Shown here piece by piece: positions 1,175-61,013 of a DNA stretch of 64,000 nt. The DNA lies in assembly GCA_000165345.1 (NCBI GenBank), contig CM000434.1:992001-1056000 (forward strand). The letters are read 5' to 3'. The position numbers were made by a program, and so were the translations under genes. Position 1 is the stretch's first letter, and every line of letters begins with the position of its first letter. The notes under the pieces were generated by a model. It was not told the DNA's origin, made no database searches, and saw nothing but the letters and a program-made list of their open reading frames with translations.

Positions 1175-1548
1175 TTTAATTTGTATTGAGTTTTTTTGCA
1201 TCTGATTTTTTCCCCACATTGTACACGTAAGCGATTTCAATTACGTGTTTTTGCGGTAATTAAAATAATAACTATATGCCGGCATTTACATGCCAAATAA
1301 TTTTAAAAAGAAGTGTAGGATTGCATGTGGATGCATGCGAGTAGAATTAGCTGGTGAATAACAAGGAGAGTGCATTAATTAATTTTTGATATGAAAACTT
1401 AGAAGGTGGAAGAAGAGATAAAGTTGAATATATTAATTTTTAGATAGGGTATAAATGTATATTTATATATATTTATATTTTTAATTGACAGTAATGTTTT
1501 AGAGTTGAGCAGATAAGAATCCCATATTATTGCTAAAAGGTGTAATAA

Positions 1549-13200: not shown

Positions 13201-16200
13201 CCAAAGATTGAATTCACAGAGTGGAAATGTCATGGTGGATTCTTTTGTGCTGCTGCTGTATATATTGCTGAGGATTACATTGATTCAATTGCTGCAGGAG
13301 ACGTAATGGCTGATTGTGATATAAAGACTATTAACCCAAAGCTATATCAAGAGACTCTAGATCTTCTGGAAGTTTCTGAGGAAGAACTTCAGTATATCCC
13401 ATCTTGGGTATCTACACAAGTTAATACTTATGGTCCAAACAATGTACATTTGGAGATGCCTTCTTCAGAAGTTGATCATCTTGCAATGTGTGTAGATATT
13501 GCAAACGTTACTGTATGTGACTCAACAACATGTGTATTTGGACATCCTCTAATGGATGCTGGTTTATCAATTGATCCTTACTCTTTATGGATGCTTGTTG
13601 ATTATCGTTGGGGTTGGCCTTTAGTAAACAGCTACTTCCAACTCCAAGAACCTTTGGTTCAAGCTTTTTCAGCAGATCCTTCTGTTATACTTTCTGGGAG
13701 GACTATTCTCACTCCTTCAGCTCAAAAGCTACTCAATTCATTATCATTCAAATCTTTACGAGATTCTATACCAAAGTTTTGGAGCTTATTATTCGATATT
13801 ATGTTAGGACCAGATTTGGATTCTAAGGATCTTGATGCAATTCTACAAGTAGTTCCTCATCTTAGATCTCTATCTGCTAATATATTTCTTGAGATCCATA
13901 GGCTTTTGGAAGAATTTGGTATTTCTGAGGAATCTCAAGATCTTTTATTCTCCCAATCTGAGCTATACTCTGCTTTAGAACCTGATGTTAATCATTGTGA
14001 AATTAATAAAGATGATCTTCAAGATCAAGATCAAGATCAACAACATGATAAAGGCTGTCTAAAAGAGTATTTAAAGAATAACATTACAATCGAAGATAAA
14101 CTGGTACCTTATAATAAAGTAAAAATGATTTTATATCCTTCAATTCCTTCTCATCCTCCAAGCTTCCAACTAAATCAAAATGAAATCACTCCATCTTATA
14201 ATATTGCTCTAAACTTCATTAACAGGCTTCACATCCTTCTTTGGCCTCATCTTATACATTTTATCTATGAGCTTCTTCCTGTTGCAATTACTATCAGACT
14301 AAAAAGACTTCTTTTCAAGAGTAGTGACGACCTCTTATTTGATCCCAGACTTACTCCTGAAGATCTTTGTGCTAGATTCTTAACAGAATCCAAGTTTCTA
14401 TTAGAATCTAGCTGTTGTCCACTTAACTTGATTAGATTCTGTGATAACAAACAGCTTTTGAATGCTGCAATAAACCAGGTAGCAGCAGCTTTAGATATAC
14501 ATGGATCATCATATACAGCAGCTTCTTGTTCTTTATCTTGTCCTACTAATAGAATGATTGATAGATTTGCTTCAGAGCTTGGAAGTTCAAACTTTGTAGT
14601 CCCAATATTGGTATATATTACTCAAATATTACTTTCTGGAACATTATATAGAGTATCATCAAAATTACTTCCACCTGAAGCTTTGTATACTTGGCCTACA
14701 AGTTCTTCAAATCAAGAATCTTTGTCTTTAACAGGTATCGGGAATTTAATTAATCATAAAGATTCCACGCCTTCAAAACAGTCAACTGGATCAAAAAAGA
14801 GGAATTCTTCAAATAAGTCTTCTTCTGGTACAGCAAGTTCTAATGGATTAATTGTACCAAATCCACTCTCAGAAGCAATTCAACATCTTCAAGTGAATCA
14901 GGTATCATTCAGTCATATTGATCCTTATGTATTTATTCCTCTTCATACATTCCACGCTGTATCAACTCCTTTATTGGTAAACATCATCTTTGAAAATGAT
15001 CTTATAGGGAGGAAGTCTTTTGCATCTGAGAGTTTTCTATGTGCTTCCAGAGTCCTTCATGTAAATAGACTTGCAACAGTAAGACATTTATACTCAGCAA
15101 TAAGAAAAGTTCTATATCAACAATTTCTAGATACAAAGATTTCTAATAGTTTAGATACTCCAGATGTAACACCATTAGATACTCCTCAATCTAAGAATAA
15201 TAATGAACATAATACAATAGGAGGAAGACAACAATCTTCTGGTCATACTCATACTAATAAGAAGAATACAATATCAAATATTCCGATACCTATAGATTGT
15301 GAAGGTTTTGATTTAAGTTGGATACCAAGTAATCCATTGGATGTTTTCTGTCTTTACTCTTTAAGACCAGATACTGATCCAACAAGAAGAGGAAGACTTA
15401 AATATACTTATATGCAACCAAATGACTTTCTAGAGAATCATTATTATGGACCTCACAAATCTAATTATGTTACGTATTGTGATGTTGCAATTTTAATTTG
15501 TGTACCTCCAGAATTGAAGCTCCAAATACCTCCAGGATCTCAGAATTCGGATCATATAACAAAAAATTCTTCATCCCAAATGAATACAGTATCGGTATCT
15601 GGAGTAGGGGTACCGGGAAAAGCAGCAAGCTTAATGGGGTCAATATCAGCAGGAATTGGAGAATCTGATTCAGATTGTGCATGTTTGTATACTTGTCCAA
15701 GTCATATAGCTCATTCACCAGTATGTCAGAGTTCAAGGATGATAGAAAAGACTGTTCCAAAAATCGTCTCACCTTTATTCAAGGCTAAACTAATAGATCC
15801 TTTATGGTCAAGTACTAAATTCCCAATGAATGATGATTCAGTTGCTCCTCTTTTGATTTTTAAATGGTTTGATCAGACAACTTTGGATATTACACTGTTA
15901 AGTGCATCAATATGTGAAGCAAGAAAGTCTTTAAGAGATTGTATTGTTTCTTGGGTATTCCCTAGAGCAAGAAGAATGGGATTAATGCCTCAAAATTCTT
16001 CTAAAGAGACTCCAAATGCAGATGATTATACAGTTTTAGAGGAATGTCATATTAGAGTATGTCAAAATGTAAGAAGATGGACTTCATCAATAAAGAAAAT
16101 CAATAGAACAACAGGAGATGTATTTATTGTTCAAAAAAGATACAATAATTTGGGATCATCCCAACCTCTGATTTCTGATTGTTCATTTATATCACCCTTT

Positions 16201-21850: not shown

Positions 21851-21884
21851 ATGCATGCAGAACTTTTGGCGCCACCCCACACTA
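21851..21884. promoter_or_regulatory. composite ATGCATGCA + E2F (ttttggcgccacc) + G-box-like (ccccacacta) module upstream of gene 22221
   Basis: Contiguous 34-nt GC-rich module. 20-mer almost identical to module at 53535-53558. Confidence 0.6.
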
Positions 21885-30506: not shown

Positions 30507-30743
30507 TTCTACTAAAAAAAGAATCTAAAAGACTAAGGATGTGTATTAAAGCTAGAAATGCATGCATGCATGCAATTATAACGGTATCGATTAAACCAGC
30601 TTAAGAATTTTCTTTTCTTGAGGGTGAAAAAAAAAAATTCACTCCTAGATTATCTCATTTTCTGTTGTATTCCTTTCTTAGAGTGTTACAAAAGTCCTGA
30701 ATATACTAAACTTAGTAAACATGTAATTAAAAAAATCAATAAT

Positions 30744-37656: not shown

Positions 37657-38178
37657 TGCTTTTTTTTTTCTTTATAATCTTTCAAGTTACCTATATGCAT
37701 GCATGCAAATTCCTAGACGAGACGAGACGAACGTGTGAAAATATATCCATGCTTTAAAATTGAAAATTTAACTTTCAGATTTGATAGCTCTTGGAGCTGT
37801 AATATTGAAATGGTGATGACAATATTAATTTTAGAAAATAAATAAGTTTTTTTGATACTTTGTTAGTGAATAAATTAGTAGGAACATTTAGCTTTGATAC
37901 CTTAATCTATTTATATATGTTTTTGAATACGCGCCTTGTTTGAATCTGTCTCATATATTCCTTTTAATTTAAGAAGAAATTAATCAAAAAAAAAAAGGAG
38001 AGGAAGAAAGAAAGAAAACTAATCCTAAATATGTTCAAAAAACAAAAGGGAAATGAATATCTAGTAAACTCAATATTAAAATTACTCCACAAAAATCCAT
38101 TCGCATCCCATTGTTTGCAGTCTCACTCTACTTCCATGCAAGTATTTTTTATGGGCCCGCCATTTTAATCCACCCAAT

Positions 38179-43077: not shown

Positions 43078-43530
43078 CGTGCCGCCAAATTTCCATTTGT
43101 ATTTTATTATTTTAAATTATATACACTCGTTGCTGCTAAGCTATTGATTCTTTGACAATAAAAAAAAGTTAAATTTTACAAGCAGTTCTCTGCTTTTGAT
43201 CATACAATCAAGCTTATTCCGCCTTGATATTTCTTTATTATCATTTCTTCTCTTTTTCTTTTTGTTTAATTCACGATTTTTTTTTTCTCTTTTATTATCT
43301 TCATTTAAAATGCCAACATAAATATTTTTATAAAATTTCAAAAATCTGCATTTCCACATTAATACGTAATTATTTCTGCATGCAAACACCGGCACGCTGA
43401 CAATTATTTAATGAAAAATTTTGTTTGTTTGCATGTAATGCCGGTATATTAATTAGGAAAAAAAAAATGTGCGCCTAATTCGAAAATTATTTTCTGTAAT
43501 TTATTATTAATCAGGTTCGATTCCCACACT
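43078..43530. promoter_or_regulatory. divergent promoter (RRM gene / PP2A B'' gene): cgtgccgccaaatttcc (43078), gcatgcaaacaccgg (43378), cccacacta (43522)
   Basis: E2F-like, AP2-like and G-box-like elements in 880-bp spacer. Confidence 0.5.
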
Positions 43531-43693
43531 ACCCATTTTTTTATTATTTTGAGTGGATGAGGGGCCACACAGTGAAATTTTGCCCTCTTTATTTTTTGCT
43601 TGTTTACATGTTAAATATTTGGGAGGGTAGGAGGCAAGAAAAAAAAACAATTAAAATAAAAATTGCCTCATTAATAACTTTAATGGAGTCAAT

Positions 43694-47120: not shown

Positions 47121-47493
47121 TTTCCCACTTGTAATTATTTTTAAAGATACTGAGCAATGCTTTATAGTTTTTAAAAGTCAAGAAAATCCACAGTCCATCC
47201 ATGTACATGGGTATTGCATCCCCAATGATAATTACTTTAAGTTTAATTTTTGTTTGAGCGCGCTTAGTGTGGATTATAATGTTGAGATCTTTAATTAATC
47301 AATTCAGAAAATTATATATTATTTGTGATTGCACCCCTCCTTGTTCAAATAAAAACTTTCATACAATATTTCAATTATTTACATAAAACTCTTATCTTTC
47401 TTTAATTTCCGTTTTAATATAACCCTTTTTTTTGCTTGTATTATTTTTTTTCTTCTAATTTAATTTAATGTTATAAATATTAATTTAAAAAAT

Positions 47494-47818
47494 CATGTGG
47501 ACATTGCATGAATTTTTCTTTTCAACATGCAATAATTCTTATTGCTAATCGCCGGTATAGAAAAAATTCACTTACTCACATTTACACGTATGCAACTGGC
47601 ATGCATGCAATTACAATGCAAGCTCATGTGGACAAATAAATTATTAAAAAAAACAATGTACAAGGTTCTAAAAAAATCTTAAATTCAATATAATTTTAAC
47701 TGCTTTATTTATTTTCTATAATTTTTAATTAAACAAGAAAAAACAATTTTTAAGTTTTTTTCAAATATATTTGCAAAGTATCACCTCAAATAATTTGAGA
47801 AAAAAAAATGCGGGAAAG
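47494..47818. promoter_or_regulatory. divergent promoter (GST-like / ProRS): catgtggacattgcatgaattttt (47494), ggcatgcatgcaa (47598), tgcgggaaag (47809)
   Basis: Motif cluster in 850-bp spacer. 24-mer shared with 58683-58704. Confidence 0.5.
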
Positions 47819-47971
47819 CTGCTTTATATGGGAATTGTCCCAATTTTATTAGTCAAATTGAAATGAAACCCGTAATAATTATTTAAAAAAAAAAAGCCAT
47901 CAAAAAATAAATTTATTAAAAGTACCAAAAGAAATAATAAACAACTAAAAGTTATAGAATTTAAGATAAAG

Positions 47972-57952: not shown

Positions 57953-58024
57953 GTTTTTACTTTGTTCCTTCCTTTCACTCTAAATTAATCCTTGAATTTT
58001 AAAATTTATATGTATAAACAAAAA

Positions 58025-58065
58025 TATATGAATATATATATTAACCCAATATATATATTCATATA
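58025..58065. repeat. perfect 18-bp inverted repeat (tatatgaatatatatatt / aatatatatattcatata) with 5-bp spacer aaccc
   Basis: Arms are exact reverse complements. Lies 72 bp upstream of minus-strand ATG 57952 in a 1-kb divergent spacer. Confidence 0.9.
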
Positions 58066-58964
58066 AATATATATATTGGATTAATATGTAAGTTTATTAA
58101 AAAACATTATTTTTTGAGAAAGCCAGAATGAATTCTAGAGCTTTTCAATTGAAGAAAGAAAGCGAAATGTATACAATTTGAATATTTTGACAAATTTTAA
58201 TCTTCATGTAAGTTTTAATTAATTTACCGGTACTTTTGCCTTGTCATTAATATGTGCACCCGAGTGTGCACACAGCATTGCCTCGATGTGATTTCAAAAG
58301 AATTATTAAAAATAATAATTGAGTGAAAATCTGGCAAATTTAAGACATGTCTACACAAATATTTTGAGTAATCTTTTCTTTTCCCGTCAAATGCTTAATT
58401 TCATATTCATCAACCATTTTCTTTCACCCAAATATGTAATCCTATGTGGGCAATATTAAATTAATTTAATAGAATTTTTCGTATTCAACAAGTAATGAAC
58501 TTTTTAAGACTAAATTAAGTTTTGATATTATTTCTATCGCAAATACCTAAATAAATATTTACTAGCTTACTCTACAATTCGACTTTAGTTGTTTTATCTC
58601 CTATCTTTTTCTCCACCCCAATTTTTTTTTTTATTTAATTGTTGACATTTACCGGTACATGCAATTTTGCTTGCATGAAATTCATGTGGATAATGCATGA
58701 ATTTAGAAAAAAAATATTCAATACCGGTGAAGGATTTAATGTGGATGCATGCAATAATGTTATTATGGGACTAAGTAGAGGAAATTTTCGTCAAATAATG
58801 AATGAGAAAAAAAATAAGTAGAAAGTGGAAAAGGAAAATAGGAATAATTATTGTTAATTTTGTATATTAGTGTAGAAAATAATATACATATATGTAAAAG
58901 AGAACAAAAAGAGTTAGGTTTTTTTTAAGAGTTTAACCATAGTTGTTGATTTTTATTAAAAAAT

Positions 58965-60242
58965 TTGAATAAGATTATTAAAGAAGAGCCAATGTCTGAA
59001 AAGAATATTATACCATTTCAGGAGGAAGAGACGAATAATGAAAAAAAGTTGGGAGTTTATGAAAAACAGGATTTGAGTGAAAGGAGGAAAGAGCTTTGGA
59101 TAATTTCAAAAAGTCTTGGGGCAATTACATTGGTATCTGCAGTAATGAATCTGGTTTTGGTTGGGATAATGATATTTATGGTAAACAGCCTAATTAAAGG
59201 CATAATATCAGAACATTCCAGGCAAATAGCAATTCAAAAGGGGATGTTATCAAACTTTATTGAAAGGAATTCAAGAATAGAAAAAAGTGTTCATAATGAA
59301 AGGATGAATTTTAACGATCATTGGAGGAAAGGAGCTGGAATACTTCCATTAAATATGCTTTACAATGCGCCATTAAAAAGTCTAGAGAATGTAGATGCTA
59401 TCATACTAGAGTTTGATGAACCAGAACAAATCGAATCTGGAAATCAAGAGAAAAAAATTAAAGGAAAAAGGCACCAGCATATGTATCATGTTGAATCCAT
59501 TACAAGAGAAGTTTCAGTAGAAGAGATGGAAGGAGGAAAACATAAAAAAAAAGAGGAAGCTGTATTAAAGTTTAACTTAACCAATCAAGGTACACTCACT
59601 GTTTATAAGGATAAAGCTATTTTAAGAGATAGGTTAGGAAACAAAGTGCATGAACTTTTCTTTGAATCAGAAAATCAAACTCATGAATATCAAAGCAAAG
59701 AAGCGGAAAAATTGCTCAGATCCGACTCAAAAGACGAGGAAAATGAAAAACAAGGTCACATACAACCTAATAATAGAAAGCTTATATCTTCCAATTCACA
59801 CAAGCACTCAGCATCCCATTCTTTGAAAACTCAAAGTGGTTATATGGCAGCTGTATGTAAATATGGATGCGGAGAAATGGGAGTAACCTACCCCTATTAC
59901 TATCGCCCCTTCTTTGGATATGGATTTCCTTTACTAGGTACTGAACCGTATTTCCAAAGTGGATATGGAGGTAATGTTGAAACTGCCATGAATAATAATA
60001 TGTTCAACCCTGAATCAGCTGGTCCTCGTCCTCCAGGAGTACAAGCAACTCCACAAACTTCACCATTTGCAATGGGCGAAAATCCATATAGCTATCCATA
60101 CTCATCTAGCCCAGGAGGAGGATACTATTATTACTATAACTTCTACCCTCCACCTCCCCCAATGCAACCAGAACCGTTCCCATATTACGAAGAAAGCTAT
60201 TACAATATTCCCCAAAATAACACAGAAGAAGAAGAAGAATAA
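58965..60242 (+). CDS. type II single-pass membrane protein with Tyr/Pro/Gly-rich C-terminus
   Basis: 425 aa. One TM helix (AITLVSAVMNLVLVGIMIFMV) near the N-terminus. C-terminal 120 aa extremely rich in Tyr/Pro/Gly (YPYYYRPFFGYGFP…GGGYYYYYNFYPPPPPMQPEPFPYY), acidic tail. Confidence 0.6.
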   Translation: MNKIIKEEPMSEKNIIPFQEEETNNEKKLGVYEKQDLSERRKELWIISKSLGAITLVSAVMNLVLVGIMIFMVNSLIKGIISEHSRQIAIQKGMLSNFIERNSRIEKSVHNERMNFNDHWRKGAGILPLNMLYNAPLKSLENVDAIILEFDEPEQIESGNQEKKIKGKRHQHMYHVESITREVSVEEMEGGKHKKKEEAVLKFNLTNQGTLTVYKDKAILRDRLGNKVHELFFESENQTHEYQSKEAEKLLRSDSKDEENEKQGHIQPNNRKLISSNSHKHSASHSLKTQSGYMAAVCKYGCGEMGVTYPYYYRPFFGYGFPLLGTEPYFQSGYGGNVETAMNNNMFNPESAGPRPPGVQATPQTSPFAMGENPYSYPYSSSPGGGYYYYYNFYPPPPPMQPEPFPYYEESYYNIPQNNTEEEEE

Positions 60243-60387
60243 TCCCCTCCTTCTCCCCACATATCCTCTATCAAGTCTTTATCTAAGCAGAATAATAATA
60301 AATTCTCTCTGTAAAACGATTGCCGCCAATACTATGACTACCCATTTTGCATGTACCAGTCATTTGTTAACTTTGACGTGTTTATTA

Positions 60388-60401
60388 TTGGCGCCAAATT
60401 T
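60388..60401. promoter_or_regulatory. E2F palindrome ttggcgccaaattt 54 bp upstream of small Tim ATG
   Basis: TGGCGCCA core. Supports reality of the 95-aa gene. Confidence 0.55.
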
Positions 60402-60454
60402 CTAAGGTTAAAAAAGAAATCGAGGGAATAAAGTTGAAAAGAAAAGGACTAATC

Positions 60455-60742
60455 ATGGAGGGAGAAAAGGAGAACAGTTCTATTCAGGCTATTGAAAAAC
60501 TTCAACTACTGCAAAGAGTTGTAGAATCACAGAAGATGATGGCAAAGTTGACTTCTAGGTGTTATAAGAAGTGTGTTGTGGGAGGATCAGGAGGTGGAGG
60601 AAAGAGTCTAACGAGGAAAGAGAAACTTTGTTTGTGGAACTGTGCCCAGAACTTTCTTGAGAGTTCGGAATTCGTTGCTTCAAGAATCACGATGGTGGAA
60701 GATACGTCTTTATCCAATCAAAAGGACTCGGAGAAGTCTTAA
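60455..60742 (+). CDS. small Tim (Tim8/Tim13 family) mitochondrial/mitosomal intermembrane-space chaperone
   Basis: 95 aa from first ATG (the ORF track starts at an in-frame TTG at 60434). Twin CX3C motifs (CYKKC … 18 aa … CLWNC) with the family-typical GG…L…E.C spacing. E2F palindrome ttggcgccaaattt at 60388-60401 immediately upstream. Confidence 0.65.
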   Translation: MEGEKENSSIQAIEKLQLLQRVVESQKMMAKLTSRCYKKCVVGGSGGGGKSLTRKEKLCLWNCAQNFLESSEFVASRITMVEDTSLSNQKDSEKS

Positions 60743-61013
60743 AGCTAAATAACAAAAAAGCCCAAAAATAGAAATTATCTCAAATCTAATACTTTAATAA
60801 TATAAATAACCTCTTACTACGATTAAATTATTGAACAACCACTTAATAATGTTTGAAAAAAAAGAAAAGCCGAGAGATATGTTCAACAAATTGGTTCGAA
60901 TCTATCACTATGTATCATATTGGTACTTCAACTTAGAGATTACTTATATTCGAGTTATCAAATTCAAATCAAAACAACGGATTCATCAATCGCAGCTCCC
61001 AATATTAAATTAA

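Follow-up and report, generated by a model that had tools for sequence, protein, structure and literature searches.

The stretch of DNA analysed here (64 kb; hereafter, the window) is a part of Cryptosporidium parvum chromosome 6, extending from cgd6_4240 to about cgd6_4450; its G+C content is about 30% and its ORFs are long and intronless. The gene identifiers given for this region in published tables include cgd6_4240 (MO25), 4370, 4380, 4390, 4410 (DNA polymerase delta), 4420 (RecQ) and 4440. The products of the flanking ORFs are identical to C. parvum records, namely ProRS (CAD98257/QOY41328) and the hypothetical proteins CAD98256, CAD98260 and CAD98261.

Two similar sequences, sites A and B (Table 1), were compared. 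Site A is located in the 851-nt spacer between the divergent genes cgd6_4390 and cgd6_4400, the latter encoding ProRS (region A, 47121–47971), with the ProRS ATG 478 nt downstream and the cgd6_4390 ATG 374 nt away. Site B is located in the 1039-nt spacer between the divergent genes cgd6_4430 and cgd6_4440 (region B, 57953–58991), with the cgd6_4440 ATG (58992) 309 nt downstream and the cgd6_4430 ATG 731 nt away. The setting in two divergent promoters, proposed in an earlier note on this DNA, is therefore confirmed for both sites. The label "GST-like" used there for the 577-aa neighbour, the product of cgd6_4390, was not supported; a Pfam search gave no match for this protein, and it appears in the published tables as a hypothetical low-complexity protein. 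In another part of the window, the spacer 60243–61013 probably hides a small Tim10/DDP zinc-finger gene, since the orthologous loci contain a gene for an 86–99-aa zf-Tim10_DDP protein there; such a gene falls under the ORF cut-off of 120 aa used here.

Orthologous loci were taken from C. meleagridis, C. ubiquitum, C. canis, C. felis, C. ryanae, C. serpentis, chipmunk genotype I and the Logan assembly, and the gene order is kept across them. The intestinal-clade species were aligned over five intergenic regions (4–5 species each).

Table 1. Positions of the paired sites, conserved blocks and promoter modules in the window.
Feature	Position	Strand	Sequence and remarks
MO25 composite	1324–1338	+	CATGTGGA-TGCATGC; 225 nt upstream of the MO25 (cgd6_4240) ATG
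ATGTGGA in the cgd6_4370/4380 divergent promoter	43353–43359	-	with TGCATGCA at 43377–43384
CACCGG in the cgd6_4370/4380 divergent promoter	43387–43392		CACCGGTA in the other species
GTGTGGA, region A	47267–47273	+	identical in 5/5 species; beside E2F-like GAGCGCG; 147 nt from the cgd6_4390 ATG
GATCTTTAATT, region A block	47286–47296		identical in 5/5 species
Site A	47494–47515	+	CATGTGGACATTGCATGAATTT = CATGTGGA + CAT + TGCATGAA TTT; cgd6_4390/ProRS divergent spacer
Region A module	47552–47635	.	CCGGTAT ... CACATTTACACGTATGCA ... ATGCATGCAA ... ATGTGGACAA; conserved
CCGGTAT, region A block	47552–47558		identical in 5/5 species
ATGCATGCAA, region A block	47601–47610	+	identical in 5/5 species
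Solitary ATGTGGACAA, region A block	47626–47635	+	identical in 5/5 species; 15 nt downstream of ATGCATGCAA
TGCGGGAA, region A block	47809–47816		identical in 5/5 species
CGGTACT, region B block			identical in 4/4 species
CACCCGAGTGTGCACACAG, region B block	58257–58275		identical in 4/4 species
Region B module	58655–58757	.	contains site B; spaced GCATG-type sites, two TGTGGA, one ACCGGT; dense, conserved
Site B	58683–58704	+	CATGTGGATAATGCATGAATTT = CATGTGGA + TAA + TGCATGAA TTT; cgd6_4430/cgd6_4440 divergent spacer
AATGCATG, region B block inside site B	58692–58699		identical in 4/4 species
TCAATACCGG, region B block	58718–58727		identical in 4/4 species
TTAATGTGGA, region B block	58736–58745		identical in 4/4 species
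Second region B composite	58739–58753	+	ATGTGGA directly abutting TGCATGCA

Recurrence and adjacency of the two halves

Both sequences are present where the earlier note placed them, on the + strand, and share 20 of their 22 bases; the length of 24 nt ascribed to them was too great, since the likeness stops at 22 nt, the next bases being tt at site A and ag at site B. The left half, CATGTGGA, occurs seven times in the window against 1.5 expected, four copies being intergenic (1324, 47494, 47625 and 58683) and three lying within long ORFs (48453, 54035 and 61037, the last on the - strand). Of the further copies reported before, the one at 1324 was placed correctly, and the other two exist but start at 47625 and 54035 rather than at 47626 and 54037, i.e., they were off by 1 and 2 nt. 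With its four intergenic copies against 0.12 expected, CATGTGGA ranks 17th among the intergenic 8-mers of the window. The top intergenic k-mers are E2F, AP2_1 and TGTGGGG words, and the intergenic word statistics recover the published families of E2F (TGGCGCCAA, GGCGGGAA), AP2_1 (TGCATGCA) and G-box-like words (TGTGGGG, TAGTGTGG).

An all-against-all comparison of intergenic 22-mers (at least 7 G+C, both strands), chosen to avoid an after-the-fact pattern, revealed two pairs with at least 20/22 identity in the whole window. One of them is the pair of sites A and B, and the other comprises 1317–1338 (AGGATTGCATGTGGATGCATGC) and 58731–58752 (AGGATTTAATGTGGATGCATGC), which have AGGATTnnATGTGGATGCATGC in common; both pairs hold ATGTGGA followed by TGCATG. 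No pairs at this level were found in 60 dinucleotide-preserving shuffles, and the resemblance is thus not a matter of chance. The second pair joins the MO25 promoter to the cgd6_4440 promoter; its AGGATT extension is not kept in other species.

The pairing of the halves also recurs when the short words are counted separately. Four of the ten intergenic copies of TGTGGA (1326, 47496, 58685 and 58740, all on the + strand) are followed by GCATG within 0–6 nt, against a background of 1.3% of intergenic positions (binomial P = 5.6e-6, or about 0.02 after correction for 4096 words), a statistic that comes from four instances in one 64-kb window. Among all 6-mers not already inside the composite, TGTGGA has the highest adjacent fraction; for GCATG-type words, this fraction is 5–14%. 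The orientation of the halves is the same in 4/4 copies, which, with n = 4, is not significant. In C. parvum, the spacers between TGTGGA and TGCATG are 0, 3, 3 and 0 nt long, and across species they are 0, 2 or 3 nt long and change between species at one site, so the sequence is not the fixed 24-nt unit described before; this variation between copies and species is easier to reconcile with two separate sites than with a single rigid one.

Conservation of the composites and of the surrounding promoter modules

In the five alignments, TGTGGA is fully conserved in 3 of 7 copies, against a background of 2.2% (P = 3.5e-4), and its conservation ranks third, behind AP2_2 (GCACAC) and AP2_1 (TGCATG). 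Three of the four composites (58683, 58739 and 1324) are conserved in other intestinal Cryptosporidium species. Conservation above background is seen at 58683 (partly), 58739, 1324, 47626 and 47267, and fails at 47494. An eight-species alignment shows GTGTGGA at 47267 in C. felis and C. ryanae as well, and TCCAC of the inverted copy at 43353–43359 (TCCACAT on the + strand) is kept in 5/5 species, TCCACA in 4/5.

At site B, C. ubiquitum and C. canis retain CATGTGGA, for which C. meleagridis has CATATGGA. The orthologous sequences read CCATGTGGA-AATGCATGCA in C. ubiquitum, CCATGTGGA-AATGCATGTA in C. canis and CATATGGATAATGCATGAA in C. meleagridis, from which it follows that the pair is kept with a 1-nt change of the spacer, shorter in C. 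ubiquitum and C. canis, and with a canonical AP2_1 site, TGCATGCA, in C. ubiquitum. In the second composite of region B, the GCATG downstream of the conserved block TTAATGTGGA is also kept in 4/4 species. The sequence of the MO25 composite, TTGCATGTGGATGCATG, is unchanged in chipmunk genotype I and C. ubiquitum; C. canis has a displaced version, GCATGCATTTGCATGTGGAAG, nearby.

Site A is the least conserved of the composites and lies about 40 nt upstream of the conserved module of region A, just outside it. Its counterpart in C. meleagridis, CATGTGGACATTGCATAA, is identical at 21/22 positions, and the one difference (GCATGA to GCATAA) breaks the GCATG; C. ubiquitum has AATGTGTGCATTGTAAGA at this position, and the sequences of C. 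canis and the Logan species are unrelated. Site A was consequently rejected as a phylogenetic footprint, being retained in C. meleagridis only. The region A orthologue of C. canis (L002, about 15800–15900) contains a long poly-G run followed by NN, which is probably an assembly artefact and limits the alignment there.

The trio of TGTGGA, GCATGCA and ACCGGT(A) words occurs in three divergent promoters of the window: cgd6_4370/4380 (43353–43392), 4390/4400 (47552–47635) and 4430/4440 (58650–58757). The ACCGGTA-type 7-mer is strongly over-represented in intergenic DNA (5 copies against 0.14 expected), ACCGGT-type words lie inside three blocks that are fully conserved across 4–5 species (CCGGTAT, CGGTACT and TCAATACCGG), and the ACCGGTA word is absent from the 25 upstream motifs published for C. 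parvum. ACCGGTA/TACCGG(T) words are found at 21883, 43441, 47552, 58225–58232, 58650–58657 and 58722, and region B contains two copies of the palindrome TACCGGTA.

Several other conserved words were observed in these promoters. Among the non-coding blocks that show no difference between four Cryptosporidium species, CACCCGAGTGTGCACACAG is the longest; it is found about 310 nt upstream of the cgd6_4430 ATG and comprises overlapping AP2_2-type words (GTGTGC/GCACAC). The conserved E2F-like words of region A are TGCGGGAA, 156 nt upstream of the ProRS ATG, and TTTGAGCGCG (47246–47262), directly before GTGTGGA near cgd6_4390. GGTTCGATTCCCACACT (43514–43530) resembles a tRNA T-arm or a Pol III B-box (GGTTCGAnTCC), and its GGTTCGA is identical in five species; beyond it lies the conserved TGAGTGGAT (43550–43558). 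Neither ARAGORN nor Rfam searches revealed a tRNA or other RNA gene at 43514–43530.

Nature of the TGTGGA and TGCATG halves

The right half was described earlier as a GCATGA half of an AP2 site, and the comparison bears out its AP2 type, the C. ubiquitum orthologue at site B being canonical. Several ApiAP2 domains, among them that of cgd2_3490, bind the AP2_1 motif, 5'-[T/C]GCATGC[A/G]-3' (PMC3734150; PMC4117751; PMC12246861), and protein-binding microarray (PBM) data for this consensus have been published (PMC4117751). The TGCAT(G) core of this ApiAP2 site, known in Cryptosporidium, in Plasmodium and as TRP-2 in Toxoplasma, is present in both sites; at 47505–47512 and 58694–58701, however, C. 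parvum has TGCATGAA, which matches the AP2_1 octamer at 7/8 positions and in which the palindrome is broken. TGCATGCA itself is about 19-fold over-represented in the window (13 copies against 0.7 expected) and mostly intergenic, matching the published chromosome 6 pattern. The density of TGCATG in the window is 3.5 per kb in intergenic DNA vs 0.41 per kb in coding DNA; for GCATG, the intergenic value is about 4 per kb. The AP2_1 core is repeated in tandem in TGCATGCATGCATGCA (30559–30574) and TGCATGCATGCA (37696–37707), each of which is located just beyond the 3' end of a long ORF.

The left half was taken earlier for an E-box-like CATGTG. CATGTG of both C. parvum copies does fit the E-box consensus CANNTG recognised by bHLH factors, but conserved copies show TATGTGG, AATGTGG and GTGTGG, and the core that is constant across species is TGTGGA(C/T), the leading C or CA being variable. 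The bases ahead of TGTGG in conserved copies are C, A, G and TA, with the lead-base variants TATGTGGAC (C. canis and the Logan species, 47625), AATGTGGA (58739) and GTGTGGA (47267). The E-box was therefore rejected as the conserved unit. bHLH factors are not known from apicomplexans.

A second candidate is the G-box-like family, namely Motif 2 of Oberstaller et al. (2013) and the G-box G.GGGG, with which the left half has the TGTGG core in common. The G-box is bound by cgd8_810, cgd2_2990 and cgd1_3520, and cgd1_3520 binds TGCAT and the G-box alike (PMC4117751). The MEME word TTGTATGTGGAAA (cluster 124; 22/25 genes) is filed in Table S3 of PMC3734150 under "Motif 2, G-box-like, DTGTGGGG", and all genes of this cluster also have TTGCATGCATAC (PMC3734150). 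TGTGGA has DTGTGG in common with the Motif 2 word set and resembles TTGTATGTGGAAA, but the last two consensus positions differ. The match to G.GGGG (G[T/C]GGGG) fails, since the copies read GTGGAC or GTGGAT, with an A, where the G-box needs a G, that is invariant in all conserved copies and species; a switch from TGTGGA to TGTGGG was not found in any conserved copy of any species compared. The variable bases before TGTGG together with the lack of this switch argue against both an E-box and a strict G-box identity. The ratio of intergenic to coding density is also different, being 21 for TGTGGG and 2.2 for TGTGGA; taken with the invariant A and the missing switch, it suggests that TGTGGA may be a specificity separate from the G-box.

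The main text of two ApiAP2 PBM papers contains none of the strings TGTGG, GTGGA and CCACA, TGTGGA is not among the published PBM motifs given in text form, and a literature search for the literal TGTGGA together with Cryptosporidium returned primer sequences only. The AP2-F paper offers no motif data, and the text of the 2007 Mullapudi paper includes no literal motif strings.

Enrichment upstream of genes, which the earlier note had made the test of its proposal, proved weak: in the window and ten orthologous loci of about 18–23 kb (11 loci in total), TGTGGA is 1–2.4 times denser in non-coding than in coding DNA. The corresponding ratio for TGCATG in the same 11 loci is about 2–25, and at least 5 in most. 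As a bare word, TGTGGA is thus weakly enriched, and the case for it rests on site-level conservation and adjacency rather than on word enrichment.

Interpretation of the paired sites

The likeness of the two 22-mers is probably explained by two adjacent short sites, a TGTGGA-core site, (C/A)ATGTGGA(C/T), and an AP2_1 site, TGCATG(A/C)A, located in dense promoter modules; on this explanation, the two sequences are alike because both contain this pair of short transcription-factor sites next to each other. The sequences themselves, their recurrence, their adjacency and the cross-species conservation of three of the four composites are observed. From these we infer the factors, their cooperativity and their effect on expression: an AP2_1-binding ApiAP2 would occupy TGCATG, and a second factor, for which a G-box/CACACA-type AP2 domain or another protein is a candidate, would occupy the neighbouring TGTGGA. 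The gap of 0–3 nt would favour joint or cooperative occupancy, which would set the timing of the expression of the flanking genes. The pair is a part of modules of about 100 bp in AT-rich divergent promoters, together with further GCATGCA and ACCGGT(A) sites, and with E2F-like sites conserved elsewhere in the same spacer as the module.

It is unlikely that the composite is instead one long site, approximately ATGTGGA(N0–3)TGCATG, recognised by an obligate dimer or by one protein that has two DNA-binding surfaces; the dual-specificity AP2 protein cgd1_3520 would be a candidate, and a pair of (G)CATG half-sites spaced by one helical turn, as in GCATGtggatGCATG, would be another. The gap is tight in 4/4 copies, the GCATG starts at 1324 are 10 bp apart, the 13-nt ATGTGGATGCATG is present at 1324 and 58739 and is identical in three species at each, and cgd1_3520 does recognise two different motifs (PMC4117751). 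However, the spacer is not equally long in all copies and at site B varies by 1 nt from species to species, fully conserved TGTGGA words without adjacent GCATG exist at 47267 and 47626, and the invariant A of every conserved copy does not suit the G-box specificity G.GGGG.

Another reading, also rather improbable, considers site A a non-functional, lineage-specific chance juxtaposition amid dense GCATG words (about 4 per kb), with the nearby conserved blocks alone being functional. The absence of site A from C. ubiquitum, C. canis, the Logan species and C. felis, the broken GCATG in C. meleagridis and the position outside the module 47552–47635 are consistent with it. On the other side, the 20/22 identity with site B extends to bases outside the cores (the T preceding CATG, the A preceding TGCATG and the AATTT tail), the shuffled sequences contained no pair this similar, and turnover of binding sites is common, so non-conservation does not show non-function. 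With the two-site explanation, site A would be a young copy, or one under weak constraint, at the margin of the conserved module.

That the shared sequence is what is left of a duplication or a mobile element, or belongs to a small non-coding RNA or short ORF, is highly improbable: both spacers are long and the match is long for a binding site, but the likeness does not reach past a core of 22–23 nt (qualifying 22-mer windows of this pair start at 47493 and the adjacent base only), which speaks against a duplication or repeat, the window contains no Rfam family at gathering thresholds and no tRNA according to ARAGORN, which speaks against a tRNA or known non-coding RNA in the spacers, and conservation in 6–19-nt blocks split by indels fits neither coding sequence nor structured RNA.

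A known example of a bipartite site is the SPE2 element, to which the tandem AP2 domains of PfSIP2 bind. Cooperative binding is reported for Toxoplasma TgAP2XI-5 and TgAP2X-5 (PMC6159514). In such systems, as would be the case here, two neighbouring short AP2-type words serve as one regulatory unit. The C. parvum pair differs in that one half lacks an assigned factor and the spacing is not fixed.

Two short words, AP2_1 and the G-box-like Motif 2, have been reported to co-occur in genome-wide work (PMC3734150), so of the "novel composite cis-element" proposed in the earlier note, the recurring pairing is real and the novelty is weak. This co-occurrence concerns the upstream regions of 16 co-expression clusters, out of 54 G-box-like clusters (PMC3734150). 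The available part of the published tables assigns cgd6_4390 to expression cluster 121, cgd6_4440 to 122 and cgd6_4240 to 125; as given there, AP2_1 is over-represented in all three clusters, and Motif 2 also in 122 and 125. Peaks of sporozoite ATAC-seq have been reported to lack AP2 motifs (bioRxiv 10.1101/2025.01.17.633476), and therefore any activity of the pairing would be expected at other life-cycle stages.

The pairing is thus real but largely known, and mostly re-finds the published co-occurrence of AP2_1 and G-box-like words at single-locus resolution; it is an ordinary pairing of promoter motifs and not a new 24-base element. What is new is the tight adjacency and the invariant A that sets TGTGGA apart from the G-box. 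The copies of most interest are site B (58683), 58739 and 1324 rather than 47494. A bolder and doubtful proposal, with a rather low chance of being right, is that TGTGGA(C/T) is recognised by a Cryptosporidium DNA-binding protein other than the G-box AP2s and forms, with AP2_1 and the unreported ACCGGT(A), a genus-conserved three-part architecture defining a co-regulated gene set.

Control of transcription in Cryptosporidium is little understood, and few families of cis-motifs have assigned factors. If TGTGGA beside TGCATG marks cooperative binding, it would represent a short conserved promoter module, with cgd6_4440 and MO25 as the best cases, and would be grounds for dividing the published "G-box-like" family into two specificities.
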